This document shows positions 35,992 through 54,665 of a stretch of DNA of 64,000 bases, piece by piece (the stretch's first letter is position 1; each line of letters begins with the position of its first letter). Position numbers and translations under genes: made by a program. Origin of the DNA: Thermodesulfovibrionales bacterium (GTDB lineage Bacteria > Nitrospirota > Thermodesulfovibrionia > Thermodesulfovibrionales > Dissulfurispiraceae). The notes under the pieces were generated by a model. That model worked only from the letters and a program-made list of their open reading frames with translations. It was not told the origin of the DNA and searched no databases. The DNA lies in contig JAGUWD010000029.1 in NCBI GenBank assembly GCA_020062545.1, positions 15,672 to 79,671 of the forward strand, read 5' to 3'.

Positions 35992-36036
35992 TTGACCAAA
36001 AATAATTTACAAAAAATTTACTTCAGGAGGGGCACC

Positions 36037-37976: not shown

Positions 37977-39082
37977 AGGCATCTTTTGAAAGAGAGAGAA
38001 TACTGATTGTACAGGCAATAGTATTTATTGCCTTAATTGCGGGCTCTTTTGTTTATACTGCTACTGCACAGGCATTGCTCCAGATAGGGGCTCAAGCTCC
38101 TGAATTTACGCTCAAGGATATAGATGGCAAGGACATAAGCCTTTCACAATATTCACAGAAAAAGGCGGTTGTGGTTCTGTTCTGGTCAACATGGAGCGCC
38201 AAGTCCCCCAATGCCCTTAAAAGATTTGAAGATTTTTATAAAAAATACAAAGACAGGGGAATACAGGTAATCGCAATCAACGCTGATAACCAGACGATTT
38301 CGAGCGAAGACATGGAAAAGATAAAAAAACTTGGTAAAGAACTTGATATTACATTTCCAATGCTTCTGGATAAGGGATTAAAAACGTTTCACGAGTATAG
38401 TGTTATAGCGCTCCCATCCACGATAATCTTATCCGAGGGAAAGATAACATATGAGCTGCCAGGATTGCCGCTTGTAGGCGCGGAGGACATGTTCGATTAT
38501 CTTCTTGTGCTGGCAGGCGAGCAGCCTAAGAAGAAGATGGAGCCCAGATACAAGCCACGGCATGATGCAATAGCAGATACAAACCTTGCAAGGGGATTTG
38601 TAAAGAGAAAAAAATACGATATGGCATATCCTCTGTTTAAGAAGGCGATAGAGAAAGATCCGAAGTATATGCTTCCTTATGTGGAGCTTGCAAGGCTCTA
38701 TGAGACGGAAGGGAAGAATCCGGAGGCTGAAGAGACCTTTAAGAACGCACTTAATGCAGAACCTGAAAATGTGGCGGTCATGAGTGAATTCGGTTATTTT
38801 CTTACAAAGCTCGGCAGGACAAAGGAAGCCATTGAAATCCTTGACAGGGCCGTGAAGAAAAATTCTTATACACCGGCTTATTATTATCATGCCTATGCCC
38901 TTGCAAAAAACGGACAGATTAAGGATTCTCTCGGTGCTTTTGAGGGTGCCCTCTCAATGAACCCATATGACCCAAAGCTATACTCTCTGAGGGGAGAAGT
39001 TTATGAGAACAGCAAGATGCTGAAAGAAGCGGCATCTGATTACAAAAAGGCTCTCGAACTTATTTTGAAGATAAAAGAATAG
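37973..39082 (+). CDS. thioredoxin-fold (TlpA/ResA-like) domain lacking both active-site Cys, fused to TPR repeats (paralogue 1)
   Basis: APEFTLKDIDGKDISLSQY..KAVVVLFWSTWSAKSP: the WCxxC position reads WSAKS; C-terminal TPR units. Confidence 0.75.
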   Translation: MKASFERERILIVQAIVFIALIAGSFVYTATAQALLQIGAQAPEFTLKDIDGKDISLSQYSQKKAVVVLFWSTWSAKSPNALKRFEDFYKKYKDRGIQVIAINADNQTISSEDMEKIKKLGKELDITFPMLLDKGLKTFHEYSVIALPSTIILSEGKITYELPGLPLVGAEDMFDYLLVLAGEQPKKKMEPRYKPRHDAIADTNLARGFVKRKKYDMAYPLFKKAIEKDPKYMLPYVELARLYETEGKNPEAEETFKNALNAEPENVAVMSEFGYFLTKLGRTKEAIEILDRAVKKNSYTPAYYYHAYALAKNGQIKDSLGAFEGALSMNPYDPKLYSLRGEVYENSKMLKEAASDYKKALELILKIKE

Positions 39083-39086: not shown

Positions 39087-40193
39087 GTGGAAGCCAAGAA
39101 AAAGGCAACGGCAAAGATTCTCCCCCTGCTGTTGCTACTTTTTTCAGTTTTTTACCTTGTTACTCTACCTGTTTCTGCACTGGCATTGCTCCAGACAGGG
39201 GCACAGGCCCCTGAGTTCGCGCTCAAGGATATAGATGGCAGGGATGTGAGTCTTTCACAATATTCGCAGAAAAAGGCGGTTATAGTTCTGTTCTGGTCCA
39301 CATGGAGCGCCAATTCTCCAAAGGCTGTGAAAAGATTCGAAGAGTTTCACAGAAAGTACAGGGACAGGGGGATACAGGTAATTGGAATAAATGCGGACAA
39401 CCAGACTATTTCTAAAGAAGATGTGGAAAATATAAAAAAATTTCTTAAGGAGATGGATGTCACTTTCCCTGTTATTTTAGACAAGGGATTGAAGACATTC
39501 CATGACTACGGGGTTATTGCACTGCCGTCTACTGTAGTTATATCTGAAGGCAAGATAACCTATGAGATGCCCGGACTTCCACTTGTAGGCACAGAGGATA
39601 TGTTTGATTATCTCTTTGTGCTGGCAGGCGAGACGCCTAAAAAGAAGATCGAACCCCGATATGTACCTCATCACGATGCAGTTGCTAATGCGAATCTTGC
39701 CATGAGATTTGTGAATAAAAAGATGTACGAGATGGCGTACCCTCTTTTCAGAAAGGCGATAGAAAAGGACCCGAAGTATATGCTTCCGTATGTGGAGATG
39801 GCTAAGCTTTATAATGTTGAGGGGAAACTTGTAGAGGCAGAGGAGACTTTAAGGAAGGCGCTGTCTGTAGAGCCTGACAATGTGGTCGTGACAGGCGAGC
39901 TTGGGTATATCCTGTCAAAAGCAGGTAAAATCAAAGATGCAATGTATATCCTTGAAAGGATTGTTAAGTTGAATTCACATGCGCCCATCTATTATTATTA
40001 TGCCTATGTACTTGCAAAAAATGGGCAGATGAAGGAATCGATGAATGCCTTTGACAAGGCGATTGCTCTTAATCCTTACGAGCCGATGATTTATTTATTG
40101 AGAGCCGAAGTTTATGAGAACAGCATGATGCTGAAAGAGGCGGCATCTGATTACAGGAAGGCTATCAAACTTATTTTAAAGATAAGAGAATAG
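39087..40193 (+). CDS. thioredoxin-fold domain lacking both active-site Cys, fused to TPR repeats (paralogue 2)
   Basis: Roughly 70 percent identical by eye to 37973-39082; the active-site position reads WSANS. Confidence 0.75.
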   Translation: MEAKKKATAKILPLLLLLFSVFYLVTLPVSALALLQTGAQAPEFALKDIDGRDVSLSQYSQKKAVIVLFWSTWSANSPKAVKRFEEFHRKYRDRGIQVIGINADNQTISKEDVENIKKFLKEMDVTFPVILDKGLKTFHDYGVIALPSTVVISEGKITYEMPGLPLVGTEDMFDYLFVLAGETPKKKIEPRYVPHHDAVANANLAMRFVNKKMYEMAYPLFRKAIEKDPKYMLPYVEMAKLYNVEGKLVEAEETLRKALSVEPDNVVVTGELGYILSKAGKIKDAMYILERIVKLNSHAPIYYYYAYVLAKNGQMKESMNAFDKAIALNPYEPMIYLLRAEVYENSMMLKEAASDYRKAIKLILKIRE

Positions 40194-40239: not shown

Positions 40240-41232
40240 GTGAAGAAACTTGCTGTAACTATAGTATCCGGTCTTTTTCTTGCTCTTATTGCTGCAACCT
40301 TTGCGCTCGGCAATTCCGGGAGATTTTCCATAATCATGCCTGTTGATTACAGTATGGTCGAAGGGGAACTCATCCCCATTGTTGTAAGATTGAGCAATAA
40401 TGTAGATGCGATTACCATCATCAGAAATAATGACGAGATTTTCAAGGGGACTGATGTCAAGGGGAAAGAGTATTTGTGCAAAACAGTGAAATTAAATTTT
40501 GGTCCCAATGAAATAACTATAAATGCCTTTGAAGGCGGTAGGGTTATTGAATCAAAAAGGGTTGCTGTTTTTTACAGGTCAGACTTATCAAGGGAATACA
40601 GGATTAGTCCTCCAGAATTCCAGAAAAAGCCGTTTCACATGGAAAATAATGAAAAACCATGTCTTTCATGCCATGAGATGAAGATTTCAGAAAAGGATAT
40701 AAAACCACAGAGGCCAGTTGATTCCATGTGTTACCCATGCCATAAAAAGATAACAGGATACGGTTATGTCCACGGCCCTGCTGCTACATGGAATTGCCTG
40801 TCCTGCCATGACAGAAATGCAAAGCCGGTTAAATACATCACGCAGAAGCCTGACAGGGACTTATGTTTTGTATGTCATAAGGAAAAGAAAGAGGAGTGGA
40901 TGCCTAAGAAGTACTGGCACGGTCCGACAGCAACAGGGAAATGCACTATCTGCCATAACCCCCATGCCACAAACAATATCTCATGGCTCAAAAAACCATC
41001 GTGGGATTTGTGTATCACATGCCATGAAGACAGAGCCTCCGGCCGGCATGTAGTTGCCGGATTTGTTTTTGGGTCTTCACATCCTACAAAAGGCAGGCCC
41101 GACCCCCTGCGCCCTGGAAAGGAGCTTTCTTGCGCAAGCTGTCATAATCCCCATGCCGCTAATTCAAGGGCTTTATTTGCCAATGATTTGATCAGCCCGG
41201 GTAGTCTGTGCCAGATGTGTCATAAGAAATAG
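40240..41232 (+). CDS. octahaem cytochrome c with about 130-aa non-haem N-terminal domain
   Basis: CLSCH CYPCH CLSCH CFVCH CTICH CITCH CASCH CQMCH; signal peptide. Confidence 0.9.
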   Translation: MKKLAVTIVSGLFLALIAATFALGNSGRFSIIMPVDYSMVEGELIPIVVRLSNNVDAITIIRNNDEIFKGTDVKGKEYLCKTVKLNFGPNEITINAFEGGRVIESKRVAVFYRSDLSREYRISPPEFQKKPFHMENNEKPCLSCHEMKISEKDIKPQRPVDSMCYPCHKKITGYGYVHGPAATWNCLSCHDRNAKPVKYITQKPDRDLCFVCHKEKKEEWMPKKYWHGPTATGKCTICHNPHATNNISWLKKPSWDLCITCHEDRASGRHVVAGFVFGSSHPTKGRPDPLRPGKELSCASCHNPHAANSRALFANDLISPGSLCQMCHKK

Positions 41233-42768
41233 ATGATGAAGCTATTCAAAAGTGTAAGGTTTAGACTGCTGATATTATCGCTCCTTGCTGTATTCGTCAT
41301 TACATCCATGGTAGTCCTGTCGGATGTGCTTGATACAAACGAGAGACTTATTGCAGCCCAGAAGGAAAAGTCCGTACTGCTGTCCGATACCATAAAACAG
41401 AGCATAATGCTTCTCATGCTCGAAAATAGATGGAAGGAGCTCCAGGTACTGATAGAAGATTTATCAAAAAACAATCCTGAATTAAAAGAAGTGAGGATAT
41501 TCCATCCGGTTTCGGGCCGTATTATTATATCCAACGAAACCGAGGATATAGGGAAGAGGATATATGAAAAGGACTGGAACAGATTTATAAAGCAGGAGGA
41601 GTCGCCTTTTGTGATAAAAAAACATGGCAGTATGTTTGCCACCCGCGTGTTACCGATTAAGAACATGCCACCCTGCTATAGGTGTCATCCACCCGAACAG
41701 AAAACACTGGGGGTCCTCGATGTTGAGATATCCCTTGCAGTTGCCCATGAATCCATAAAGGCATCGACATATAAACATATCACAGGACTTGTCGTCGGAT
41801 TTGTTGTAATAAGTATGATATTTCTTATCGGCGGAGAAAGACTTATTAACACTCCTCTGAGGGAATTAATAAATGTGATGAAAAAGGTGGAGTCAGGGGA
41901 TCTGTCGATCAGGATTAAAGAGATGAGAAATGACGAGTTCGGTTATCTATCTGGTGCATTCAATCATATGATTGATACCCTTGAGTCTGCAAAGAAGGAA
42001 ATAGAGAGATGCCACATGCAGCAGATGGAAAGGGCATCGAAGCTTGCATCCCTCGGAGAGATTATCTCCGGAATAGCCCATGAGATAAAGAACCCGCTGG
42101 CCGGCATAAGCTGTGCTATCCAGGTGTTTAATTCCGAACTAAGCGACGACGACAGCAGGAAGCCCGTTATTACCGAGGTTTTAAATCAGGTAAACAGGCT
42201 CGACAGAATAGTGAAGGACCTTTTGAGCTATGCAAAACCCAAGCCCCCCATGTTTGTGCCTTCGCGGATAAGCGAGATTTTAGAGAAGACCCTTTTCTTT
42301 GTGTATCCCGAGGCAAAAAAACAGAACATAGTTATCGACAATCAAGTCAGCAGCGAAATCCCTGAAATACTCATGGATCCCGACCAGGTACAGCAGGTGT
42401 TCCTGAATATAACCATAAATGCTATTCACGCAATGCCTAATGGCGGCATATTGACTATATCAGTATCAAAGAAAGACAGACAGGAAGTGCAGGATGAGAT
42501 AAAAAGGCTTGTACAGGATGATAAGTTTATAGCTGTTAATTTTCATGATACAGGCAAAGGCATATTACCGGAGGACTTAACTTACATATTCGAGCCGTTT
42601 TTTACAAAAAAGACCAAAGGCACAGGTCTTGGATTGTCTATAAGCCGTAAGATTATTCAGGAGCACGGCGGCGATATTACAGTGCGAAGCGAAGTTGGTA
42701 AGGGAAGCTTATTTACTGTATACTTACCGATAAAAAGTTCACAGCCTACGGTTCACGGTTCACAGTAA
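41233..42768 (+). CDS. sensor histidine kinase with a periplasmic CXXCH (haem c) domain, HAMP, HisKA, HATPase
   Basis: Two TM helices flank a roughly 150-aa loop containing PPCYRCHPPEQ; HAMP; H-box GIAHEIKNPLAGI; GTGLGLSISRKI. Confidence 0.88.
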   Translation: MMKLFKSVRFRLLILSLLAVFVITSMVVLSDVLDTNERLIAAQKEKSVLLSDTIKQSIMLLMLENRWKELQVLIEDLSKNNPELKEVRIFHPVSGRIIISNETEDIGKRIYEKDWNRFIKQEESPFVIKKHGSMFATRVLPIKNMPPCYRCHPPEQKTLGVLDVEISLAVAHESIKASTYKHITGLVVGFVVISMIFLIGGERLINTPLRELINVMKKVESGDLSIRIKEMRNDEFGYLSGAFNHMIDTLESAKKEIERCHMQQMERASKLASLGEIISGIAHEIKNPLAGISCAIQVFNSELSDDDSRKPVITEVLNQVNRLDRIVKDLLSYAKPKPPMFVPSRISEILEKTLFFVYPEAKKQNIVIDNQVSSEIPEILMDPDQVQQVFLNITINAIHAMPNGGILTISVSKKDRQEVQDEIKRLVQDDKFIAVNFHDTGKGILPEDLTYIFEPFFTKKTKGTGLGLSISRKIIQEHGGDITVRSEVGKGSLFTVYLPIKSSQPTVHGSQ

Positions 42769-42845
42769 AAAATTATTTACTATTCACAGTGAACTGGCGA
42801 GGGTGACCTAATTTTGCCGTGAACAGTGAACAGTGAACGGTGAAC
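42737..42845. repeat. GTTCAC/GTGAAC heptamer-array palindrome between kinase and regulator genes
   Basis: Left arm ttcacag cctacgg ttcacgg ttcacag (overlaps the kinase C-terminus SSQPTVHGSQ*), central ttcacagtgaa, right arm ccgtgaa cagtgaa cagtgaa cggtgaa. Confidence 0.85.
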
Positions 42846-42861
42846 TATTTAAGGAGGCTAC

Positions 42862-44247
42862 TTGGTTCACGCAAAGATTCTTGTTGTAGATGATGAAAGG
42901 TTTATAACATGGTCTCTTAAGCAACACCTTGAGAAAGAGGGCTATGAAGTCTTCACTGCCGAATCGGGTGAAGAGGGGCTTGAGGTATTCAGGACAGAGC
43001 TGCCTGACATTATCCTCCTTGATATTCATCTCCCTGGAATAAGCGGTCTTGAAACCCTTGAAGCCATAAGGAAAATCAACAAGGAAGTCATTGTGGTTAT
43101 CATAACTGCCCATGGAGATATAGAGACAGCAGTTTCTGCTATAAAGTTAGGCGCATACGATTTTGTTGAAAAACCATTCGATCTGAACAGGATATCCGTT
43201 CTTATCAAAAAGGCGCTGGAAACGATAACCCTGAAAAGGGAAGTTACCTATCTAAGGGAAGAGCAATATGATAAGTATAGCTTTAACAACATAATAGGAC
43301 AATCCAAGTCCATGAAAGAGGTCATAGCCCTCGCAAAGAAAGTTGCAGAGAGCGATGCCAATATCATACTCATTCAGGGTGAGAGCGGTACAGGCAAGAA
43401 CCTCATAGCACGGGCCATCCATTACCACAGCGCAAGGGCATCCGAGCCCTTTGTCGAGGTTACGTCAACAGCCATCCCGGAGACGCTGATAGAGAGCGAG
43501 TTGTTTGGCTTCGAAAAGGGTGCATTCACAGATGCAAAGGCATCTAAAAAGGGGCTCTTCGAGCTTGCCAGCGGCGGCACGCTCTATCTCGATGAAATAG
43601 GAGATATCAAGCCTGCCACACAGGCAAAATTATTGAGGGTTATTGAGGATAAGACATTCAAGAGGGTAGGCGGGCTTAAGGATATAGTCGTGAATGTGAG
43701 GATTATCGCTGCCACAAATAAGAATCTCGAGAGTGCGGTTAAAGATGGCAGTTTCAGGGCTGATCTTTATTACAGGCTTAAGGTTATTCCCATATTCATA
43801 CCGCCGCTGAGGGAGAGGAAAGAGGATATAATCCCTCTCGCCATGCATTATATCAGGCTTTTCAACAGGGAGTTCAAAAAGAATGTAAAAGGCATATCTC
43901 CGGAGGCCGAAAAACTGCTTGTGAATTATCCGTGGTACGGCAACACGAGGGAGCTTAAGAATGTGATAGAGAGGATATGCATCCTTGAAGATACCGATGT
44001 CATATACCCGGAGCACATACCTTCGGAAATTGTCGATTATGTGGGTACTGCGGAGGTTTCTCCTGCAGAAGAGGAAAAGGCATCATTCAATATCCCTCCC
44101 GAGGGGCTTTCCCTCAAGAATGTGGAAAAGGATTTGATCGTAAAGGCCCTCCAGATGGTTAACGGCAACCAGACAAGGGCCGCAAGACTGCTTGGCATAT
44201 CGAGGGATGCGCTCAGGTATAAGATGCAGAAGTTCGGACTATTATAG
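42862..44247 (+). CDS. sigma-54-dependent response regulator (NtrC family: REC, AAA+, Fis-type HTH)
   Basis: ILVVDDE..D; GESGTGKN Walker A; GAFTDA (GAFTGA loop variant); C-terminal NQTRAARLLGISRDALRYKM; TTG start with RBS aaggagg. Confidence 0.92.
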   Translation: MVHAKILVVDDERFITWSLKQHLEKEGYEVFTAESGEEGLEVFRTELPDIILLDIHLPGISGLETLEAIRKINKEVIVVIITAHGDIETAVSAIKLGAYDFVEKPFDLNRISVLIKKALETITLKREVTYLREEQYDKYSFNNIIGQSKSMKEVIALAKKVAESDANIILIQGESGTGKNLIARAIHYHSARASEPFVEVTSTAIPETLIESELFGFEKGAFTDAKASKKGLFELASGGTLYLDEIGDIKPATQAKLLRVIEDKTFKRVGGLKDIVVNVRIIAATNKNLESAVKDGSFRADLYYRLKVIPIFIPPLRERKEDIIPLAMHYIRLFNREFKKNVKGISPEAEKLLVNYPWYGNTRELKNVIERICILEDTDVIYPEHIPSEIVDYVGTAEVSPAEEEKASFNIPPEGLSLKNVEKDLIVKALQMVNGNQTRAARLLGISRDALRYKMQKFGLL

Positions 44248-44595
44248 TTACTTCTTGTGGCACTGATTGCACAGAATTATTGTATCTAATCTTAACATCA
44301 TGGGGTCTTTTGAGTGCTGGTCATGGCATGTAATGCATGTGAGCTTCCCTTCTTTTGTCAGAGGAAGGTTTTTTGGTACGGGATATTTAGGGATTATATC
44401 GACTATATGTTCTCCTGCTTCTACCCTCTCCCGATGACAGGTGATGCACAGTTCGGTAAGAGGTTTTTTTACAGGCCCTCCGTTATGAGATATATGACAT
44501 GCTGTGCACTCTTTTGTCTGGAGTGCAGAAGTCTGATGAGATACCATCAGTGGTATAAAAATTGATAAAACAAAAATGTAAATAGTATGTTTCAT
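44248..44595 (-). CDS. small periplasmic tetrahaem cytochrome c
   Basis: CTACH CITCH CITCH CNQCH; signal peptide; its stop abuts the regulator stop. Confidence 0.85.
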   Translation of the reverse strand: MKHTIYIFVLSIFIPLMVSHQTSALQTKECTACHISHNGGPVKKPLTELCITCHRERVEAGEHIVDIIPKYPVPKNLPLTKEGKLTCITCHDQHSKDPMMLRLDTIILCNQCHKK

Positions 44596-44613
44596 AAGAT
44601 ATATAGACAAAAA

Positions 44614-45696
44614 ATGTTATTTACAAAAATCTTACCACAAAAAAAAGAACAGGTAAAGGTAAAGGGGAAAAAAATATTTTTTAACTGTCTATTATTGCTC
44701 TTTACCTCTACCTTTACCTTTACCTGTCTCTCTTGTGCTCCTAAAACAGAGCAAGTCGAATTATTCTGGCCGCAGCCGCCTGATGAGCCGAGGATTAAGT
44801 GGGTTGGATGGATAAGGGGAGAGAAGGATGTCGTTGGAGAAACAGGCAAGGAATGGCTGATGAGGTCAGTGGTTGGCGAGGGAACAGATGTTCTCCTTGC
44901 ACGGCCATACAGTGTCTTTGCTTCAAAAGGCAGGGTTTATGTGGCAGACACTGGGGGCTCGAAGATAGCAGTATACGATACGGTTAACAAAAAGGCGTAC
45001 TATATAGGTAAAAAGGCAGGTATCGGTGGTCTTAGTAAGCCAATCGGTGTGGTTGTTGATGGGGAAGGCAATATATACGTAACCGACTCATCACAGGACA
45101 GGGTAATAGTTTACAACCAGAACGGCGATTACAAATATACCCTTAATAAGAAAGGGCAATTTAAGCAGCCAACCGGAATAGCTATCAATGAATCCCTCGG
45201 TAGGATATATGTAGTTGATACACACAGACACAATGTAACTGCAATGAATAAAAATGGCGATATGCTTTTTGAATTCGGCAAAAGGGGAAGTAACGAGGGT
45301 GAATTTAATTATCCCAACAGTATTTATGTTGACAGGCGCGGATTGGTTTATGTCAGCGATACCCTGAACTTCAGAGTGCAGATATTCGATCCCGATGGAA
45401 AGTTTATCAGGCAGATAGGCTCCATAGGCGATACCCCCGGAAGACTTGCAAGGCCGAAAGGTGTAGCTGTAGACTCTGACGGAAATACATATATCGTGGA
45501 TGCTGCCTTTAATAATGTCCAGATATTCGACAGGGAAGGCACCTTACTGCTCTTCTTCAGCTCTATGGGCATAGGGCCGGGCAAATTATGGCTTCCGTCA
45601 GGAATCTTTATAGACGAAAAAGACACGATCTATATAGCAGACCAATTAAACAGACGGATAGATATATTCCAATACCTTCGCCATTTCCCTCACTAA
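44614..45696 (+). CDS. NHL-repeat six-bladed beta-propeller lipoprotein (paralogue 1)
   Basis: LSC lipobox; repeated ..P.G(I/V)A(V/I)D..G.IYV(A/T)D..N.R(V/I)Q(I/V)F.. blades; start may be ATG 44587. Confidence 0.85.
   Translation: MLFTKILPQKKEQVKVKGKKIFFNCLLLLFTSTFTFTCLSCAPKTEQVELFWPQPPDEPRIKWVGWIRGEKDVVGETGKEWLMRSVVGEGTDVLLARPYSVFASKGRVYVADTGGSKIAVYDTVNKKAYYIGKKAGIGGLSKPIGVVVDGEGNIYVTDSSQDRVIVYNQNGDYKYTLNKKGQFKQPTGIAINESLGRIYVVDTHRHNVTAMNKNGDMLFEFGKRGSNEGEFNYPNSIYVDRRGLVYVSDTLNFRVQIFDPDGKFIRQIGSIGDTPGRLARPKGVAVDSDGNTYIVDAAFNNVQIFDREGTLLLFFSSMGIGPGKLWLPSGIFIDEKDTIYIADQLNRRIDIFQYLRHFPH
44650..44726 (+). repeat. GGTAAA/TTTACC hexamer palindrome inside the NHL1 signal-peptide coding region
   Basis: caggtaaaggtaaagg (44650-44665) is the perfect inverted complement of cctttacctttacctg (44711-44726). 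Confidence 0.85.
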
Positions 45697-45720: not shown

Positions 45721-45779
45721 AGCTCGTAGCTCATGGCTCATTGTTCATAGCTCACTGTTCGCGGCTTACAGTTTGCAGC
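45721..45779. repeat. heptamer array (left arm)
   Basis: agctcgt agctcat ggctcat tgttcat agctcac tgttcgc ggcttac agtttgc. Confidence 0.8.
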
Positions 45780-45889: not shown

Positions 45890-45919
45890 GCCGTGAACTG
45901 TGAACCGTGAACAGTAAAC
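45890..45919. repeat. GTGAAC heptamer array (right arm)
   Basis: gccgtga actgtga accgtga acagtaa. Confidence 0.8.
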
Positions 45920-45928
45920 TTTTTCATC

Positions 45929-45944
45929 TGGCATGGGCTTTGCT
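45929..45944 (+). promoter_or_regulatory. sigma-54 (-24/-12) promoter
   Basis: TGGCAT-gggct-TTGCT, matching TGGCAC-N5-TTGCW; about 95 nt before ATG 46041. Confidence 0.7.
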
Positions 45945-46040
45945 TATAAATTGTCAAGAAGTTTGAAATAAATTTATAGGGGTGGAGATATTATGAAAAA
46001 CTTAACAATCTTTAAAACCAAAAAACGGGAGGTGAGTAAG

Positions 46041-46736
46041 ATGAAAGGAAAAATCTTAGTAGTAATGGTAGTAGCAATCGCACTTTTAGGTGCAGGTGTA
46101 GCATTGGCAGGCATTTCAGCCACAAAGCATAACCTGTCAGCAAGTGGTCCTGGCACAGTAAAGGCAAACGCAGGACAGCAGAACGATGAAATCTGTGTGT
46201 ACTGCCATACCCCGCACTTTGCCAACACAGGTTTTACAGGAGCACCGCTCTGGAATAAGGCAACTCCATCGGCCACTTATACTATGTATGGAACAACCAT
46301 AGCAGGTTCAACACCTGATGCGACACCGAACGGCATTACAAAGGCATGTCTTTCCTGCCATGATGGCGTAAGTGCACTCAACTCAATAGTCAACCAGGCA
46401 GGCTCAGGTGGAGTTACCGCTGGTGGATATAATGTGGCATTTGGTGCAACAGCAGCAGGAACAGCATTCACAATGCCCGCTGGCGCAACCAATATTGGAA
46501 CAAATTTAGCTGACGACCATCCAGTATCGATTACTTATACTGCTGGCAATGCAAGCCTTAAGGCAACATCAACGACACTTACAGGCTGGACAGGCGCTAC
46601 AACAATAGCAAATTTGCTCAGAAATGGAAAGGTTGAGTGTTCGAGCTGCCATGATCCGCACACAAGCACAAATGGCTTGTTCTTGAGGGTATCCAACTCT
46701 GGAAGCGCACTTTGCCTTGGCTGTCACGGGAAATAA
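46041..46736 (+). CDS. secreted tetrahaem cytochrome c, Thr/Gly/Ala-rich (small-cytochrome family member 1)
   Basis: CVYCH CLSCH CSSCH CLGCH; signal peptide ..GVALAG; RBS gggagg before ATG 46041. Confidence 0.88.
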   Translation: MKGKILVVMVVAIALLGAGVALAGISATKHNLSASGPGTVKANAGQQNDEICVYCHTPHFANTGFTGAPLWNKATPSATYTMYGTTIAGSTPDATPNGITKACLSCHDGVSALNSIVNQAGSGGVTAGGYNVAFGATAAGTAFTMPAGATNIGTNLADDHPVSITYTAGNASLKATSTTLTGWTGATTIANLLRNGKVECSSCHDPHTSTNGLFLRVSNSGSALCLGCHGK

Positions 46737-46750: not shown

Positions 46751-46781
46751 AAAAAGGGGAGATATTCTCCCCTTTTTTTTT
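46751..46781. terminator. intrinsic terminator
   Basis: ggggaga tat tctcccc stem-loop flanked by an A-run and TTTTTTTTT. Confidence 0.8.
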
Positions 46782-46886: not shown

Positions 46887-47069
46887 ATGGAAAAGACCAC
46901 AATATACTTGGATAAAGACATAAAGATGCATCTGCTCGAAATGGTTGCCGATATAAGCAAAAGACAGGGCAAGAGGGCTGCCATGTCTGATATAATACGC
47001 GATGCATTAAGAGAATACTTTGAAAGACAGGAACAGGAAAAGGTAAAGGAGGATGATAGGTATGAGTAA
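46887..47069 (+). CDS. ribbon-helix-helix (CopG/antitoxin-like) protein with no adjacent toxin
   Basis: MEKTTIYLDKDIKMHLLEMVA...DIIRDALREYF RHH pattern. Confidence 0.6.
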   Translation: MEKTTIYLDKDIKMHLLEMVADISKRQGKRAAMSDIIRDALREYFERQEQEKVKEDDRYE

Positions 47070-48156
47070 ACAGAAACAGATAAAGGTAAAGATGAAAAAA
47101 CTTTTAGAAAGATTTACCTTTTTACTGTTTTTCTTTGCCTTTACCTTAGCCTGTTTCTCCTGTGCTCCGCCTGCAGTTAAGGAAGTCAAGCTTATCTGGC
47201 CATCACCCCCTGAGGAACCGAAATTGGCATATGTGAACAGCTATAAAGGAGAAAGCGATTTTAAAAAGAAAGGTTTTTTTGAAGCTGTTCTGGGTGAGAC
47301 AATGTTCAGCACCGACCTCCAGAAGCCTTATGGCGTTACTGCTTATGGAGACAAGATGTATGTTACGGATACGCAGAGTGCGGTTGTATTTGTTTTTGAC
47401 CTGAAGGAGCAGAAAGTAACCTTTATGGGACATAAGGATATGGGCAAACTTGCCCTTCCAGCAGGCGTTGCTGTTTCATCTGACGGCATCATCTTTGTGT
47501 CAGATGCAAAACAGAAGAGGGTATTCGGTTATGATGCAAACGGCAATTTAAAGATAGCCCTCGGGAAAAAGGATGAATTTAAAAATCCCGGCGGTATTGC
47601 CATAAACAATGATATTGGAAGGCTATATGTAGTTGACAGTTACGGACACATGGTTCATGTTTACTCCACGAAGGGTGATCCACTTTTTACCTTTGGCAAA
47701 AGAGGGGACGGGGATGGGGAGTTCAATTATCCGTCCAATGTAGCTATCGAGAGAAAGACAGGCAATATCTATATAGTGGATACACAGAACTTCAGGGTAC
47801 AGGTTTTTGATAAGGACGGAAAATTTATAAAGAGATTCGGGCAGATCGGCGATGTGCCCGGCACTTTTACAAGGCCTAAAGGCATCGGCATTGACAGCGA
47901 AGGCCATATTTATGTGGCTGACGCTGCATTTGACAACCTCCAGATATTCGATGACAAGGGGCAGATACTTCTTTTCATTGGAGGCCCCGGACATGAGCCT
48001 GGATATTTCTGGCTTCCTGCAGGCGTGTATGTGGATGAAAAGGACAGGGTATATATCGTAGATTCTTTTAACCATAGAGTTCAGGTGCTCCAGTATCTGA
48101 GCGAAAAGTGGAAGAAGGAAAATCCTGAAAAATACAAAGAATACTTAATGAAATAA
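47062..48156 (+). CDS. NHL-repeat beta-propeller lipoprotein (paralogue 2)
   Basis: FSC lipobox; same blade pattern and WP.PPEEPK motif as paralogues 1 and 3; overlaps the RHH stop by 8 nt. Confidence 0.85.
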   Translation: MSKQKQIKVKMKKLLERFTFLLFFFAFTLACFSCAPPAVKEVKLIWPSPPEEPKLAYVNSYKGESDFKKKGFFEAVLGETMFSTDLQKPYGVTAYGDKMYVTDTQSAVVFVFDLKEQKVTFMGHKDMGKLALPAGVAVSSDGIIFVSDAKQKRVFGYDANGNLKIALGKKDEFKNPGGIAINNDIGRLYVVDSYGHMVHVYSTKGDPLFTFGKRGDGDGEFNYPSNVAIERKTGNIYIVDTQNFRVQVFDKDGKFIKRFGQIGDVPGTFTRPKGIGIDSEGHIYVADAAFDNLQIFDDKGQILLFIGGPGHEPGYFWLPAGVYVDEKDRVYIVDSFNHRVQVLQYLSEKWKKENPEKYKEYLMK

Positions 48157-48161: not shown

Positions 48162-49106
48162 ATGAAAATCTTAATTTTAGTTTTAACCTTGACCTTAACC
48201 TCAACCTATTCTTTTGCCTCTGATTTGAAGGAGAGTAAGGTTGTAGCAACTGTGAACGGCTCTGCAATTACCCGCGCCGATCTGGACATGGAGGTAAACA
48301 GGCTGTTGCCACAGGAGCTTTATCACCGTAGCGTTACGCCGAAAAAACAGGCAGAGGTAGAGAAGAAGGCCATTGAGAATCTCATCAATGCAGAGCTTTT
48401 AAATGCAGAGGCAAAAAGGCAGGGACTAAAGATCGATAATTTGGAGTTCAAAAAAAGAATTGATGCTGTTAAGGCGTCTTATCAGACCAAAAAGGCATTT
48501 GAGGACGCGCTGAAAAAGAGCGGCTTGACTGCCTCTGTTTTTGAGGAAAAGGTCAGGGAAGGCATGATGGTGGAAAAGCTTATCGAGAAGGAAGTGAAGG
48601 TCTCGCTTACAGATAAAGACCTTGAGGACTATTACAAAAAGCATACGGAGAAATTTAAAGAACCAGAGGCAGTGAGACTCGGGTATGTATATATAAAGAT
48701 AAACCCATCGGAGCCGGATGGAAAGAAAAAGGCAAAGGAGAGGGCAAAAGAGGCATATTCCAAGATCAGGTCCGGAGCGGACTTTGCCCAAATTGCACAG
48801 ATGTATTCCAATGATATGAGCAGGATTAAGGGTGGAGACGTGGGATTTGTCCACAGAGGCACAATGCCACATGACATCGAAAAGGCGGCTTTTTCTTTGA
48901 AAGCAGGACAGGTGAGCGAAATCCTCGAGACCGATATCGGATACCATATAATCAAGGTCGAGGAAAAGAGGGCATCAAGGCATGTCCAGTTCAAGGAGAT
49001 AAAAGACAAGCTCAGAAAAGAGCTTACAGAATCCATGCAAAAAGAGAGACTGGAAGGTCTTATAAAAAGACTAAGAGAAAATGCAAAGATACAATATATA
49101 CAATAA
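48162..49106 (+). CDS. SurA/PrsA-like parvulin-type peptidyl-prolyl isomerase
   Basis: Signal peptide; SurA-N-like helical part; parvulin core GGDVGFV..G.....E.AAFSLKAGQVSEILETDIGYHIIKVEE. Confidence 0.85.
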   Translation: MKILILVLTLTLTSTYSFASDLKESKVVATVNGSAITRADLDMEVNRLLPQELYHRSVTPKKQAEVEKKAIENLINAELLNAEAKRQGLKIDNLEFKKRIDAVKASYQTKKAFEDALKKSGLTASVFEEKVREGMMVEKLIEKEVKVSLTDKDLEDYYKKHTEKFKEPEAVRLGYVYIKINPSEPDGKKKAKERAKEAYSKIRSGADFAQIAQMYSNDMSRIKGGDVGFVHRGTMPHDIEKAAFSLKAGQVSEILETDIGYHIIKVEEKRASRHVQFKEIKDKLRKELTESMQKERLEGLIKRLRENAKIQYIQ

Positions 49107-49142: not shown

Positions 49143-50882
49143 GTGGAAAGGGGGTCCCCAAAAAGTCGCAGACTTTTTGGGGTAATGGTGTTGTTGAGGG
49201 GGATATGGATTTATGCCCTGGCAGGCACTACTATATATATGATTAGCCTTGTGTTTCCTTTGATAACATTTGCACAGAAAACCGGCGGTCTTTCCGGACT
49301 TATCCAACTAACGTACCAGAAGGACAGGAATAAAGACATCGGCGCTGAGTCCGAGAAAAACACATTTACTCAAGAGTATAAATTACAGTATCAGGGACAT
49401 GTTTACAGTCCGAGGCTTTTGATGTATAACATTGGGGGAACTTTCAGGAAAGAGGATTCTGATACAGAAGAGTCCCGTGCTGGAAATACATCTACAAAAA
49501 CAAAGAGCAAGGATTACAATCTCAAGCTGGACTTTATTCAGGGGACAAAATATCCTTTTACCATATTTAAAGAAAAAATAGAATTGCCCACATGGACGAT
49601 TCAACCCGAGCAGACATTTCAGACAAAGCAAACCTCTGACAGATATGGGCTTTTCGGCAATGCATTTCTTGGCAAGGGTATAAACATGAGGTATGACATT
49701 CGTAAGGACAATACGAGGACGACCGGACAAACCGAAGGAACTGACCAGAGGAACAGGAGTTTTCTGTTTGGAATTGACAGCAGGAAGGAAGACAAATTTA
49801 TAGATACTTCATATAATTACCAGCATAATTTTGAAAAAAGTAAAAACCAATTTGAGGCAATTAACGATGCTAAGGTCTCCTGGGGATTAAGGGGCAAAAC
49901 CACAAACTTCAATATGGATATGAGTTACAACGACAACAGTTTTACTGAGTTTACGACTACCACGGCTAATATGAACCTGAACTATATGCCGTCAACGGAT
50001 TTTAATTCTAATTTCAGTCTTTATGGCAACAAAATAGAGCAAAAAGAAAATAGAGGATATTTTACAACACTTTTTGAAAACACAACATACAGAATTAGCC
50101 CTTATCTTACAACAAACCAGAACCTCATGTTGTATAAAAGCACCGGGGATTTTGGAAACGATGCTACGGAATCGCTGACTCTCGGCCTCGTATTCACTAA
50201 ACAGGCGCCTCAGGGTATCACCTATTCTGCTGATACTTCCGTAAACGGGACCGCACAGCAGTCAAGTACAACAAAAGACAGGAATTCCACATTCTACTCT
50301 TTAGGTGCGCGTGTGTCGAAGTTTTTCGAAAAGATAAGCTCAGAGGTTAATGCAGGCGGTTCCTATTATTACTACAATTCATCCCTTGGTGGAAGAACTA
50401 CGAGATATGCATTTAACGGAGGCTTTATAAGCCGCTTTATAAAAAACATGACACTCCAGAGCCTCCTCAATTTTACCGAGGAAGACACCATTGGCGATGA
50501 AATAGAAGGTGCATCGTCAGAGTCGAAGACGAAGCGTCTTATCTCTGACAATTCCATAGGCTACTTTCTGCAACTCGGCTTTAGAGGCAGTCTTGATGCA
50601 AAGGTTGGTGCTATCTTTGAAAAAGGCACCACTCCGAGGACATTTAGATATGGCACCTTAACCTTCAGATATGCCATGAGGAGGGATCTGTCGGCAAATG
50701 CAGGATTGAACTTTTACAAGGAAAATATTAATAACACACGGACAATTACAGGCTTTCTGGGTGTAGAATATAAATTAAGGGGTATTACAATGAATCTTAG
50801 AAATGAACTATGGAAAGAGAAAGGGACTACAGGGACTAAAACCAGGTCTTCAACATTTTTGCAGGCATCAAGACCGTTTTAA
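49143..50882 (+). CDS. outer-membrane beta-barrel (porin-like) protein
   Basis: Signal peptide ..LITFAQ; long run of alternating-polarity strands rich in Y/N/T/G; C-terminal ...FLQASRPF (terminal Phe); start position uncertain. Confidence 0.65.
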   Translation: MERGSPKSRRLFGVMVLLRGIWIYALAGTTIYMISLVFPLITFAQKTGGLSGLIQLTYQKDRNKDIGAESEKNTFTQEYKLQYQGHVYSPRLLMYNIGGTFRKEDSDTEESRAGNTSTKTKSKDYNLKLDFIQGTKYPFTIFKEKIELPTWTIQPEQTFQTKQTSDRYGLFGNAFLGKGINMRYDIRKDNTRTTGQTEGTDQRNRSFLFGIDSRKEDKFIDTSYNYQHNFEKSKNQFEAINDAKVSWGLRGKTTNFNMDMSYNDNSFTEFTTTTANMNLNYMPSTDFNSNFSLYGNKIEQKENRGYFTTLFENTTYRISPYLTTNQNLMLYKSTGDFGNDATESLTLGLVFTKQAPQGITYSADTSVNGTAQQSSTTKDRNSTFYSLGARVSKFFEKISSEVNAGGSYYYYNSSLGGRTTRYAFNGGFISRFIKNMTLQSLLNFTEEDTIGDEIEGASSESKTKRLISDNSIGYFLQLGFRGSLDAKVGAIFEKGTTPRTFRYGTLTFRYAMRRDLSANAGLNFYKENINNTRTITGFLGVEYKLRGITMNLRNELWKEKGTTGTKTRSSTFLQASRPF

Positions 50883-50998: not shown

Positions 50999-52072
50999 AT
51001 GATGAGAAAAACAGTAATTGCAATAATAACATTGGTTTTGGTCATAACTACCTTAACCTATTCTTTTGCCATGGGACCAAAGATTGAAAAGAAAAAGGAG
51101 CACATAGTATGGCCGCCGCCGCCATGGGAGCCGAGGATAGAATTTCTGTACACCATTACAACACCAGATGACTTTGATATTAAAAAGGGCTTTTTCCGTC
51201 GCTTGTGGGAGTTTGTCGCCGGTGAGTCGAGGGAGGGTGTTGTAAAGCCATTTGGAGTCTTTGCAGATGACAGCGGCAGGGTATATGTTACAGATACTGC
51301 TGATCAGTCGGTGCATGTATTTGACCCAAAAGACAATAATTATTTTGTTGTCGAGGGAATAAACAAGAAGTCCCGCCTCACCTCACCCATCAGCGTGGCA
51401 ACAGACGCTGAAAGGAATATCTATGTGTCTGATTCGGTTATAAGAAGGGTGTACGTTTTTAATGAAAAAGGAAAATTTATCAGGGAGATAGGCTCAGGCA
51501 ATGCTATGCAGAGACCTACAGGTATTGCCATAGATAAGGCATCGGGAATCCTCTATGTCGTCGATACCCTTGCCAGCAAAATCTTTGTTTATAGCCTTGA
51601 CGGCAAACATATAAAGACCATTGGAGAGTACGGGGGTGGTAATGGCCAGTTCAATCGTCCAACCTTTATTGCAATCGGAAAGGATGGGAACCTGTACATC
51701 ACGGACACAATGAACGTGAGGGTGCAGATAATTGATAAAAACGGGAAATTTATCGGGAAGTTCGGTAAAAGAGGCGATGGAACAGGCGATCTGGCAAATC
51801 CGAGAGGAATTGCTCTCGACAGCGAAGGGCACATTTATATTACAGATACCATCCTTGAGGCAGTACAGATATTCGATAAGTCAGGACGGCTTCTCCTCGT
51901 ATTCGGCAGAAGAGGGACGAACAGCGGCGAATTTGCCTTGCCGGCAGGTATAAGCATTTCAAATGATGATAAAATATATGTAGCAGATTCTTATAACATG
52001 AGAATACAGGTATTCAGGTATCTAAAAACAGGCAGAGGTATAGGTAAAGGTGAGGATGGAAAAAGCAAATAA
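50999..52072 (+). CDS. NHL-repeat beta-propeller protein (paralogue 3)
   Basis: Signal peptide ..TLTYSFAMG; WPPPPWEPRI motif; six NHL-like blades. Confidence 0.85.
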   Translation: MMRKTVIAIITLVLVITTLTYSFAMGPKIEKKKEHIVWPPPPWEPRIEFLYTITTPDDFDIKKGFFRRLWEFVAGESREGVVKPFGVFADDSGRVYVTDTADQSVHVFDPKDNNYFVVEGINKKSRLTSPISVATDAERNIYVSDSVIRRVYVFNEKGKFIREIGSGNAMQRPTGIAIDKASGILYVVDTLASKIFVYSLDGKHIKTIGEYGGGNGQFNRPTFIAIGKDGNLYITDTMNVRVQIIDKNGKFIGKFGKRGDGTGDLANPRGIALDSEGHIYITDTILEAVQIFDKSGRLLLVFGRRGTNSGEFALPAGISISNDDKIYVADSYNMRIQVFRYLKTGRGIGKGEDGKSK

Positions 52073-52200: not shown

Positions 52201-54294
52201 ATGTCATTGCGAGGAGCAGCAGCGACGAAGCAATCTCAGAAGACTAAAAATATCTTCTTGATTTTATTGGCTATCTTTACCTTTGCCTTTGCCTGTTTTT
52301 CTTATGCTGGTATTGTAAATACAAAACATAATATGTCTATTACCGGTTCTGGCGGTATAAAGGCAACTACAGAGACAGAGATATGCGTGTTTTGCCACAT
52401 ACCACATAATGCACAGCCGGGCAGGCCTTTATGGAACCATGACATGCCGGGCTCGGCATATACCATGTATACAAGCGAATACCTGCACAGGGCAGGCTAT
52501 ACTGTTCCAACAGGGCTTGGAACAACCACAGGCACTCCCGGAATGCTTTCAAGGCAGTGTCTGAGCTGCCATGACGGCACGGTTGCTGTAGGGGCTGTTT
52601 ATATGGTCAGAGGGACGATCTTAGGAACAAGCCTTATTGCAATGTCCGGTGTTGCCGCAGGTGGAGAAATACCTACTGCTGCACCAGGTTATATAGGCAC
52701 AGACCTCAGGGCGCATCATCCTGTCGGCATCGAGTATAACCCGGCAATTAATATTGCCTTTGGTTCTGGCTCAAGGACTATAGAGCTCATAACGAACCCC
52801 ACATCAACGGCCATGAAGCTTTACAGGATAAGCGCGAAGGACTATGTTGAATGTTCATCGTGCCATGACCCGCATCTGGAGAATACTAAATTTTTAAGGG
52901 ATACCAGCGGCGCAACATTTGCAGCAAAGATAAGCAATACATGCACTGCATGCCATAATAAAACAGGGTGGTCGGGAAGTGTTCACCAGACTAATGCAAC
53001 AGCATATTCTGATGCAAGCGTGAGCACAACTTTTGGTGCCGGGACAATATCATCCCTTGTCTGCATGAACTGCCACAGGACGCATAAAGGCCTCGGCACT
53101 CCGTATTTATTAAGACAGGCTGAAGAGACAACGTGTTTTCAGGGTGCATCGAGCTCTGTTAATGAGACTGCCTGCCACGGCTCAAGTTCTTCGGCAACTA
53201 CAAACAGGATTCAGACAGTTATAACGAGGACATATAAACATCCAACAACAACAATATCAGGTAAACATACCGACCTCGATGTTCTTTATCCCACAGGAGG
53301 TACTCCTGCCGGAAGCCTCGGACTCGACTGGTCGAATGCAAAACATGCTGAATGCGTTGACTGCCACAATCCGCATAAGGCAAAGAATACTCCAGCACGT
53401 GTGGGAACAACCGCATGGTATCCAACGACTATTGACAATACATCCAATCAAACAGATAAATCAGGGGCGCTTACAGGTGTAACTGGCGTGCAACCAGGTA
53501 CTGCCTCTATTTGGACAGTTCCTACAACTTTTACAACTCTGGAGTCTTCGACATACGAATATCAGATATGCTTTAAATGCCATTCATACTGGGCATTGAG
53601 GGACAATGACGGCATTACTACTTACACAACAGCATCAGGCGTAACAGTAACGGATCAGGCAATGGAATTCAATCCTAACAACAAGTCTGCCCATCCTGTT
53701 GTCGTTACATTGAATAACCAGACCGGTTCTTATTCACCAAAACCATTGGCATCTTCCCAGATGTCTTCTCCTTGGGCAACCAATTTGGGCAATCAGACAA
53801 TGTACTGCTCTGACTGTCATGGTGCTGACAATGAAACATCGGGAGACCCAAAAGGACCTCATGGGTCAAATGTGAAATATATGCTTAAAGGTACAGGGAA
53901 ATACTGGCCTACAAAGAGCGATGGCACTACATTGTGGAGATTGAATTCTACCGATGCCCAAAACAGCCAGCTTTTTTGTAGAAATTGTCATCCTGTCTGG
54001 AATACTAATAGTGTTCACTCAAAGGGCGACCATAATAGTAAAAGTTACACCATAGGCGGACAAAGTGGCACAGGCATCCCATGCGTCGGATGTCATATAG
54101 TAATTCCTCACGGTTCAAAGAGGTCGAGGTTGATAGGTTATGCCTCGGATATTTCTCCATACGATTATAATAACAATACTAGCCAGATAACTCAGTTTAA
54201 AAAGGCATCAGGCCCGTCTTTTTATTCAAAGACTAACTGCCAGGCCGGTTGCGCTGGCGACCACAGTAACTCTGTATCAGGTGCCGATCCATAG
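52201..54294 (+). CDS. decahaem cytochrome c (small-cytochrome-like N-terminal module plus a roughly 450-aa extension)
   Basis: CVFCH CLSCH CSSCH CTACH CMNCH CVDCH CFKCH CSDCH CRNCH CVGCH; signal peptide ..FACFSYAG; RBS gggggt; the first 12 codons lie in a solo cassette repeat. Confidence 0.88.
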   Translation: MSLRGAAATKQSQKTKNIFLILLAIFTFAFACFSYAGIVNTKHNMSITGSGGIKATTETEICVFCHIPHNAQPGRPLWNHDMPGSAYTMYTSEYLHRAGYTVPTGLGTTTGTPGMLSRQCLSCHDGTVAVGAVYMVRGTILGTSLIAMSGVAAGGEIPTAAPGYIGTDLRAHHPVGIEYNPAINIAFGSGSRTIELITNPTSTAMKLYRISAKDYVECSSCHDPHLENTKFLRDTSGATFAAKISNTCTACHNKTGWSGSVHQTNATAYSDASVSTTFGAGTISSLVCMNCHRTHKGLGTPYLLRQAEETTCFQGASSSVNETACHGSSSSATTNRIQTVITRTYKHPTTTISGKHTDLDVLYPTGGTPAGSLGLDWSNAKHAECVDCHNPHKAKNTPARVGTTAWYPTTIDNTSNQTDKSGALTGVTGVQPGTASIWTVPTTFTTLESSTYEYQICFKCHSYWALRDNDGITTYTTASGVTVTDQAMEFNPNNKSAHPVVVTLNNQTGSYSPKPLASSQMSSPWATNLGNQTMYCSDCHGADNETSGDPKGPHGSNVKYMLKGTGKYWPTKSDGTTLWRLNSTDAQNSQLFCRNCHPVWNTNSVHSKGDHNSKSYTIGGQSGTGIPCVGCHIVIPHGSKRSRLIGYASDISPYDYNNNTSQITQFKKASGPSFYSKTNCQAGCAGDHSNSVSGADP

Positions 54295-54340
54295 AGAGTA
54301 AAAAGAGGACCGACTGCTTTTTGATTGATTTGCCCTCCAT

Positions 54341-54367
54341 AAGTGCTGTATACTGTATACAGCACTT
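54341..54367. promoter_or_regulatory. perfect 13-bp-arm palindrome, probable VapB operator
   Basis: aagtgctgtatac t gtatacagcactt, 20 nt upstream of the vapB ATG. Confidence 0.55.
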
Positions 54368-54386
54368 AAAAACAGGAGGTTTTAAA

Positions 54387-54665
54387 ATGTCTGTTGCAGA
54401 GAAAAGAACGCAGGTCTATTTTCCAATGGAACTGTATAAGAAGGTAGAAAAAAAGGCTAAAAAGGAATCCAGGTCTTCTGCCGCGATTATCAGGGAGGCT
54501 GTTGCACAGTATCTTGAGAAGGAGGAAGAAAAAGAAATTGACTGGGAGAATGATCCGATATTTAAACTGGCGGGAATTATGAAAAGCGGCGTTGGGGATC
54601 TCTCTGTGAATCATGATTATTACCTGTATGGAATGAAAAAGAAGAAAGTTGTTAAAAAGCAGTGA
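54387..54665 (+). CDS. vapB: RHH-type VapB antitoxin
   Basis: MSVAEKRTQVYFPMELYKKVEKKAK..SAAIIREAVAQYL; overlaps vapC by 4 nt. Confidence 0.75.
   Translation: MSVAEKRTQVYFPMELYKKVEKKAKKESRSSAAIIREAVAQYLEKEEEKEIDWENDPIFKLAGIMKSGVGDLSVNHDYYLYGMKKKKVVKKQ

Follow-up and report, generated by a model that had tools for sequence, protein, structure and literature searches.

OmcE-family cytochromes, free and fused, in a conserved locus of a Thermodesulfovibrionales bacterium

Results

OmcE-family genes in the window

We analysed a 64-kb stretch of contig JAGUWD010000029.1 (hereafter the window) from a Thermodesulfovibrionales bacterium of the phylum Nitrospirota, following an original prediction, made from the letters alone, that small multihaem cytochromes encoded there are candidate filament subunits. 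Positions 35992-59210 form one cytochrome locus, in which the gene at 46041-46736 encodes a tetrahaem cytochrome homologous to OmcE, the subunit of extracellular cytochrome filaments. Four genes of the window belong to the OmcE family:

46041-46736, plus strand: OmcE-family tetrahaem cytochrome, 231 amino acids (aa), signal peptide, 4 CxxCH, 8 His
52201-54294, plus strand: multihaem cytochrome of tandem OmcE-like modules, 697 aa, 10 CxxCH plus one CX11CH; module 1 at aa 16-254
61712-62386, plus strand: pentahaem OmcE-like paralogue, 224 aa, 5 CxxCH, 10 His in the mature part, LNPHF present
62584-63279, plus strand: pentahaem OmcE-like paralogue, 231 aa, 5 CxxCH, 11 His, canonical CHTPH

Direct counting agreed with the original prediction in giving the tetrahaem four haem motifs (CxxCH at C52, C103, C200 and C225) and exactly eight His, and each pentahaem five motifs. 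The tetrahaem start at 46041 was favoured over an upstream ATG at 45993 because a strong ribosome-binding site (GGGAGGTG) lies just 5' of it. The product carries a Sec-type signal peptide with predicted cleavage after ALA23 (between ALA and GISATKHNLS), where the AlphaFold2 model has a helix at residues 2-26. Together, Thr, Gly, Ala and Ser account for 50% of its mature residues.

In a phmmer search of all PDB sequences, the tetrahaem matched OmcE of Geobacter sulfurreducens (7TFS; E 2.5e-27, query residues 6-231 on chain residues 11-232) and 9YUQ, the Desulfuromonas soudanensis OmcE bundle (E 4e-26, full length; bioRxiv 10.1101/2025.10.22.684050). These OmcE filaments were the sole full-length matches, and OmcS was missing at E<=10. 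In alignment A1, consisting of the window family proteins and the two solved OmcE subunits, the tetrahaem was 36-37% identical to the latter, and K29-H30, the four CxxCH, W71-N72, Y83, D108, H160-P161, H207 and F214-L215 were invariant. The common layout claimed for the four proteins therefore stood for these motifs, with the first ~255 aa of 52201-54294 included, and failed at two places in 61712-62386, which reads CHTWR and PAWN. The AlphaFold2 model of the tetrahaem (protein chain only, haems absent; 99 homologues in the input) had a predicted local distance difference test score (pLDDT) of 85.2 and a predicted template modelling score of 0.77. Compared with the PDB by Foldseek, it had 7TFS as its sole significant match (E 2e-7, template modelling (TM) score 0.57/0.64). 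By full-length sequence match, fold and conserved ligand layout, the tetrahaem is clearly an OmcE homologue; it is a new member of that family and not a new kind of protein, its lineage being already listed as having homologues.

An alternative role for the small cytochromes, as c3/c7- or NrfB-type soluble shuttles in the periplasm, draws on their small size, their Sec signal peptides and weak Pfam matches of the tetrahaem, with Cytochrome_C7 at 26.9 bits (cut-off 24.8, no individual stretch passing) and Cytochrom_c3_2 at threshold. However, these matches cover generic haem motifs only, whereas the full-length matches are to OmcE alone; Pfam and NCBIfam return only generic haem-motif families since neither has an OmcE model. 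No c3, c7 or NrfB structure was matched significantly by sequence (PDB phmmer; NrfB E 0.57) or by fold (Foldseek), and the gene context is an outer-membrane barrel cluster. The shuttle alternative is thereby largely refuted, and we regard it as very improbable.

Haem-ligand histidines

The eight His columns of the tetrahaem were 96-100% conserved across 240 relatives, far beyond chance, and were conserved to the same degree in 121 modules comprising free tetrahaems, pentahaems and modules fused inside larger proteins. The tetrahaem has no spare His, its eight being those of the four CxxCH plus four extra ones. H30 (TKH; codon 46128-46130) is invariant, so this N-terminal His is almost certainly a haem ligand, as had been proposed; the model is confident about the segment around it (pLDDT 81 at residues 21-30, 93 at residues 31-40). 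The count of eight His for four haems does not tell which of them acts in trans, since all eight are conserved in every class.

In OmcE filaments, each subunit has one haem that takes a His ligand from the adjacent subunit (PMC9473688; 10.1101/2025.10.22.684050), and OmcS and OmcE have a common inter-subunit coordination pattern and haem-chain geometry according to the OmcZ paper (PMC9473688). In OmcS, whose haem-505 ligand is supplied by the neighbouring subunit, residue 16 is a His three residues past the first CxxCH (ECEGCHTMH in the OmcS sequence). This His16 is said to have been identified as the trans ligand by Wang and co-workers in 2019. Given this position and the common coordination pattern, H59 of the tetrahaem (in CHTPH; codon 46215-46217) is, by analogy with OmcS, likely to be the donated His, and H30 is an unlikely donor. 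The internal two-haem repeat (free His, CxxCHxPH, CxxCH; twice) is compatible with several single-trans ligation schemes, so by itself it does not decide between H30 and H59. Of the claim that the paralogues could polymerise by N-terminal His donation, the part concerning OmcE-related filament candidates is strongly supported; the donor His is unproven, and the OmcS analogy points to H59.

The cytochrome locus

Every component of the published minimal OmcE cluster is present in the window, namely two multihaem cytochromes, two beta-propeller lipoproteins, OmcE and a large beta-barrel, with resB/ccsB adjoining. Petersen et al. 2025 (10.1101/2025.10.22.684050) likewise recognise clusters by an outer-membrane beta-barrel, beta-propeller (lipo)proteins and further multihaem cytochromes. 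Together with full-length homology and 7TFS as the sole fold match, this OmcE-type neighbourhood upholds the tetrahaem and its paralogues as filament-subunit candidates related to OmcE.

The first half of the locus runs from a 13-CxxCH cytochrome through a TPR protein, two TlpA-like thioredoxin-TPR proteins, an octahaem and a sensor kinase to an NtrC-type activator. The middle comprises a small minus-strand tetrahaem, an NHL gene, the OmcE homologue, a second NHL gene, a SurA-like isomerase, a 579-aa open reading frame (ORF) and a third NHL gene. The 697-aa cytochrome, a short insert, a 200-aa tetrahaem, a LuxE-like protein, ResB and CcsB form the end. The order is fully conserved in the cultured Dissulfurispira thermophila (AP022873.1), and the same gene order occurs in Sulfurimonas, Nitrospinota, Persephonella and Nitrospirae loci. 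Besides the OmcE-family genes, the features are as follows:

35992-37416, plus strand: cytochrome with 13 CxxCH (MtrA/DmsE-like doubled-CXXCH repeats), candidate periplasmic electron feeder
37973-39082 and 39087-40193: two tandem paralogues with a thioredoxin-like (AhpC/TSA, Redoxin) domain and TPR repeats, by domain matches
40240-41232, plus strand: octahaem cytochrome
41233-42768, plus strand: sensor histidine kinase (syntenic D. thermophila gene: HAMP/HisKA/HATPase_c)
42862-44247, plus strand: NtrC-type sigma-54 activator (syntenic D. thermophila gene: Response_reg/Sigma54_activat/HTH_8)
44587-45696, plus strand: NHL-repeat six-bladed beta-propeller (NHL E 1.4e-31), Cys at the signal-peptide end
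47053-48156, plus strand: NHL-repeat beta-propeller (NHL E 6e-31)
48162-49106, plus strand: SurA-like periplasmic peptidyl-prolyl isomerase/chaperone (Rotamase E 8e-24, SurA_N_3 E 6e-19)
49143-50882, plus strand: predicted large outer-membrane beta-barrel, 579 aa, 28 predicted strands, C-terminal Phe
50999-52072, plus strand: third NHL-repeat beta-propeller, directly upstream of the fused cytochrome
55121-55723: 200-aa tetrahaem, 10 His
57134-58396, plus strand: ResB, system II cytochrome c maturation (E 7.7e-40)
58386-59210, plus strand: CcsB, system II cytochrome c maturation (E 6.9e-60)

The AlphaFold2 model of the barrel (pLDDT 83.8, 28 strands) had MtrB of the Mtr complex as its top Foldseek match (6R2Q_B, E 4.9e-9), and the 579-aa ORF had no family match in Pfam or NCBIfam. 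Its true start is probably 49185 or 49239, and the protein is 100% identical to one of a Thermodesulfovibrionales metagenome-assembled genome (MAG). Judged by eye, the propellers at 44587-45696 and 47053-48156 may be lipoproteins. The two thioredoxin-TPR paralogues adjoin the separate TPR protein and are probably thiol-reducing and chaperone factors in apocytochrome maturation; D. thermophila has apparently one full copy plus fragments. The kinase and the sigma-54 activator (41233-44247) are candidate regulators of the cluster.

The 200-aa tetrahaem has the compact motif order His, CxxCHxxH, CxxCH, HP, CxxCHDPH, CxxCH, as in OmcE-like proteins, and a Pro/Ala/Lys-rich tail (APASPAETPAPKPKKK); D. 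thermophila has a gene of equal length at this position. Its predicted mature N-terminus, FGGHDGLVCSGCHSIH, resembles the OmcS counterpart, FHSGGVAECEGCHTMH. Despite this resemblance it was rejected as an OmcS relative (phmmer E 3.5), and it could be a small cap or adaptor. The 474-, 330- and 120-aa cytochromes of the cluster were rejected as OmcE-family members, having only a doubled-CXXCH motif of ~30 aa in common with it.

Between the large and the 200-aa cytochromes, the insert at 54321-55075 holds two small genes that appear antitoxin- and PIN-toxin-like by eye. The same spot in D. thermophila has other small genes (DUF4258/DUF2283), with an RHH/PIN pair after the 200-aa cytochrome, which suggests a variable insertion point in an otherwise syntenic cluster.

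A large cytochrome with tandem OmcE-like modules

Residues 16-254 of the 697-aa cytochrome matched the family profile at E 1.3e-51, and residues 20-254 matched OmcE 7TFS at E 8.6e-26 (phmmer, PDB). The original prediction called this protein a decahaem, and its ten CxxCH are there. In addition, a CX11CH (CFQGASSSVNETACH) at aa 312-326 (53134-53178) aligns with a CxxCH in the C-domain consensus of the homologues; the protein is therefore probably an undecahaem, binding 11 haems, with one long-loop haem site.

The fused architecture was compared in 79 loci spanning many phyla, taken from at least 558 loci with an OmcE-like module in species-representative genomes. In these and the window (80 loci), the module occurred as a free tetrahaem 53 times (the window's own proteins included), as a free pentahaem eight times and fused 60 times. 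The fused module is N-terminal in cytochromes of 500-1000 aa with 10-11 CxxCH, usually directly downstream of an NHL propeller, and this gene pair is conserved across phyla.

All 60 fused proteins have a His after the fourth CxxCH, within W-x-x-S-x-H-x-x-S and at +10 in 53 of them, and in all 60 a CxxCH-x-x-H then follows. The C-terminal part of the window protein opens in the same way, with W-x-x-S-x-H ... CxxCHxxH. The +10 spacing equals the C-terminal tail of a free subunit (2 aa) plus its mature N-terminus up to TKH (7 aa). A second OmcE module was matched only weakly and out of register by plain hidden Markov model search (independent E 1e-5), so that profile-profile comparison was required; in it, the C-domain profile aligned in register with the OmcE profile (hhalign probability 97.8%, E 7.8e-13). 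From the junction spacing and this alignment, the large cytochrome is a tandem array of OmcE-like modules, and its inter-module junction looks like a covalently fixed subunit-subunit junction.

The tandem-module cytochrome with its filament-like junction is the most interesting lead of this analysis. In OmcE operons, a candidate for a tip or stopper has yet to be recognised (bioRxiv 10.1101/2025.10.22.684050). Tentatively, the 697-aa cytochrome and its relatives may be covalent 'mini-filaments' of two to three modules head to tail which, with the NHL protein and the barrel, would form a membrane base nucleating or terminating OmcE polymerisation. If so, the fused cytochrome would supply the missing anchor, initiator or 'stopper' of OmcE operons, and its junction sequence would show which residues sit at the filament interface.

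The pentahaem paralogues

The pentahaem at 62584-63279 matched 7TFS at E 2.8e-20 (phmmer, PDB). In both pentahaems, the extra CxxCH and a conserved distal His are inserted between the haem-2 motif and DDHP; five CxxCH motifs were found in 42 of the 240 relatives. The paralogue at 62584-63279 has CHTPH and no NPH. In 61712-62386, by contrast, the second His of CxxCH(T/I)PH is gone (CIFCHTWR), PLWN has become PAWN and LNPHF is present, CHTWR plus LNPHF being a combination unique to its small clade. Across the 240 relatives, the CHxPH His is present in 96%, and the only full-length proteins truly lacking it belong to the 61712 clade (P0121-P0124 and P0126, plus the truncated P0125); in P0076 and P0144 this His is displaced by one residue, and the P0079 sequence is fragmentary. 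NPHF upstream of DDHP likewise occurs in the 61712 clade alone. The exchange of the CHxPH His for the NPH His is suggestive of a ligand swap that arose in a single evolutionary event.

The two pentahaems may thus not be equivalent: possibly, though doubtfully, 62584-63279 polymerises as a 'leaky' 5-haem wire and 61712-62386 is a self-satisfied monomer, a cap or a heteropolymer partner. The coincidence of CHxPH His loss and NPHF gain in one clade alone argues for this, as does the position of the genes, which are adjacent and each preceded by (GGTAAA)n repeats; against it, the exchange is one evolutionary event with no independent replicate.

Promoter-like and terminator-like signals

Sites resembling the sigma-54 -24/-12 promoter precede three of the four OmcE-family genes, and a hairpin follows the tetrahaem gene:

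45929-45944, plus strand: sigma-54 -24/-12 promoter-like site TGGCATGGGCTTTGCT, 97 nucleotides (nt) upstream of the tetrahaem ATG
46756-46780, plus strand: intrinsic-terminator-like hairpin with T-run, 20 nt past the tetrahaem stop codon
52127-52142, plus strand: perfect sigma-54 -24/-12 consensus TGGCACTAAATTTGCT, 59 nt upstream of the large-cytochrome start codon
61619-61634, plus strand: sigma-54 promoter-like site TGGAACGACTCTTGCT, 78 nt upstream of the 61712 pentahaem

These were the only three sites in the 64 kb at no more than one mismatch to the sigma-54 consensus, all on the plus strand and 59-97 nt 5' of OmcE-family genes. Their number is not above chance (3 vs 2.4 expected), and only their placement is informative; by our own estimate, the chance of all three falling in the upstream zones (~600 nt of 128,000 strand positions) is roughly 1e-7. 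Judging from these sites, expression of the cluster is probably sigma-54 dependent and under its two-component system. The hairpin after the tetrahaem gene suggests a monocistronic unit.

Short tandem motifs lie upstream of the tetrahaem sigma-54-like site, consisting of GTGAACTGTGAACCGTGAACAGTAAAC and (T)AGCTCA units at 45893-45920 and 45721-45770; they may be activator-binding sites.

Comparison with known systems

The tetrahaem resembles OmcE of G. sulfurreducens (GSU0618, 7TFS) and of D. soudanensis WTL (DSOUD_2954, 9YUQ) in its length, its four CxxCH in the same order and its four extra His, found in the N-terminal TKH(D/N)LS, CHTPH, DDHP and CHDPH. Its fold is mostly coil (TM ~0.6), and the accessory genes are alike (barrel, beta-propellers, multihaem cytochromes, resB/ccsB). 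It differs in having a long Thr/Gly/Ala-rich loop (aa ~108-155) in place of the Geobacter loops, and in its host, which belongs to Nitrospirota (Thermodesulfovibrionales) and not Desulfuromonadia. The window cluster includes a SurA-like isomerase and a third NHL propeller, and no glycosyltransferase block is evident beside it.

OmcE-like proteins with five CxxCH are regarded as a possible new, partly solvent-exposed nanowire family (10.1101/2025.10.22.684050), and the window pentahaems fit these '5-haem OmcE-like' proteins of Petersen et al. 2025 in length, sequence and the fifth CxxCH. They differ in that their genes are neighbours and share the genome with a canonical tetrahaem OmcE cluster, and in the trade of the CHxPH His for an NPH His in 61712-62386. 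OmcS (6EF8) likewise has a His near the mature N-terminus followed by CxxCH-x-x-H, but it has six haems and 407 aa and no detectable sequence homology to the tetrahaem.

The large barrel, with MtrB as best structural match, beside deca- or undecahaem cytochromes recalls MtrCAB and other porin-cytochrome systems. The barrel is only 9% identical to MtrB, has no family match and has 28 predicted strands, whereas MtrB has 26. The fused and small cytochromes of the window are OmcE-type, not MtrA/MtrC-type.

Multihaem cytochromes with an extracellular cytochrome of ~11 haems and NHL propellers, compared by taxonomy and architecture only, also link the locus to the occ cluster of 'Ca. Dechloromonas occultata', with undecahaem OccP and 6-NHL proteins (10.1101/695007), and to the NHL-containing outer-membrane cytochrome clusters of Desulfovibrio ferrophilus IS5 (PMC5815863). 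In the passages of these two reports considered here, the modules are described neither as OmcE-like nor as filament-related. Five betaproteobacterial loci (L053, L056, L061, L066 and L069) follow the window order of NHL, OmcE-like and peptidyl-prolyl isomerase genes, then NHL and a large OmcE-module cytochrome. 'OmcE-like' multihaem cytochromes with porins, from peat MAGs, are a further architecturally similar case described as an outer-membrane cytochrome system.

Distribution

The tetrahaem shares 94% identity with a protein from a Nitrospirota MAG and 87% with one of D. thermophila. The homologue search returned 1029 matches, and 2452 clusters were found at E<=1e-30 among 1.84 billion representatives. 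OmcE homologues with such neighbours are known in Nitrospirota and four other phyla (10.1101/2025.10.22.684050).

Loci L008-L078 (Bacteroidota, Planctomycetota, Calditrichota, Gammaproteobacteria and others) most commonly hold a relative of ~560-600 aa with 11 CxxCH, comprising an OmcE-like module and a C-domain of ~355 aa, directly downstream of an NHL propeller (e.g. L009 9980-11690, L014 10001-11690). Often, a free OmcE-like tetrahaem is encoded at a distance of a few kb.

Filament subunit or surface carrier

Homology, fold and synteny support reading 46041-46736 as a filament cytochrome, a reading already published at the family level, and on balance this protein is probably the major subunit of an OmcE-type extracellular cytochrome filament. 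We infer polymerisation, extracellular location, which His is donated, what the barrel, propellers and fused protein do, and which way electrons flow. Several points weigh against the filament. The case for polymerisation rests on 36-37% identity to two solved filaments, and filaments have been seen for three family members only, all from Desulfuromonadia, so that many relatives in a very large family may be monomeric. Across the loci, the OmcE-like module sits mostly within the fused cytochrome and not in a free subunit. Close relatives of the host are sulfur disproportionators and not classical metal reducers. The physiological role of cytochrome filaments is itself disputed (PMC11077965).

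These points leave some room, although we think it improbable, for the small cytochromes being non-polymerising OmcE homologues, that is, monomeric or loosely bound surface or periplasmic carriers that dock on a complex of barrel, NHL protein and undecahaem as the real conduit. The pair of NHL gene and fused cytochrome is the most widely conserved unit (a C-terminal-domain match after the OmcE-like module in 56 of the 79 loci, NHL genes in 69), several such loci have no free tetrahaem in the sequence examined, and the barrel resembles MtrB. Similar clusters have been read as outer-membrane cytochrome complexes in two reports (PMC5815863; 10.1101/695007). Yet the tetrahaem has exactly the eight His of filament OmcEs and no ninth 'stopper' His. 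Its own promoter-like site and terminator-like hairpin would be expected of an abundant structural subunit, and the fused junction mimics a head-to-tail contact, which speaks for this contact geometry being native to the family.

If the tetrahaem is the filament subunit, it would be a Sec export substrate that receives its four bis-His c-type haems from the adjacent ResB/CcsB, with periplasmic handling by the SurA-like isomerase and the NHL propellers. The 28-strand MtrB-like barrel would serve as site or passage for assembly; stacked head to tail, the subunits would join their four haems into one continuous chain, one conserved His completing a haem of the neighbour. The 10+1-haem protein may continue the wire near the membrane, as anchor or nucleator, and would receive electrons from the periplasmic cytochromes with 13 and 8 haems. 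The pentahaem pair would be '5-haem OmcE-like' variants whose extra haem, on others' prediction, is solvent-exposed. Expression would depend on sigma-54 under the two-component system of the cluster.

A complete OmcE-type locus thus lies in a lineage known for sulfur disproportionation, not metal respiration. D. thermophila, cultured, syntenic and with a protein 87% identical, is a tractable organism for the question of whether OmcE filaments occur outside Desulfuromonadia, and of their partners. With a tetrahaem of the 'insulated' kind, a pair of 5-haem variants and an undecahaem of tandem modules, one genome offers a natural comparison of wire start, anchoring and possible 'leakiness', which the 2025 OmcE literature states as open questions.

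Dispersed repeats

A dispersed (GGTAAA)n repeat occurs in the window, with GGTAAAGGTAAAG found 17 times at no more than one mismatch (0.08 expected). Copies lie at 21202-21220, 37508-37526, 44652-44724, 47036-47145, 52037-52049, 52275-52287, 61538-61550 and 62437-62461, where genes for secreted proteins of the locus have their 5' ends; a minus copy often comes after a plus copy. In three genes (NHL_a, NHL_b and TPR), the signal peptide is partly encoded by the two repeat arms, which give its K-rich n-region (KVKGK) and its FTFTxTF h-region; the arms also fold into long RNA hairpins (z -4.5 to -5.1). The repeats may serve the sigma-54 activator as enhancer sites, form structures in the start region of the mRNA, or be a small mobile repeat.

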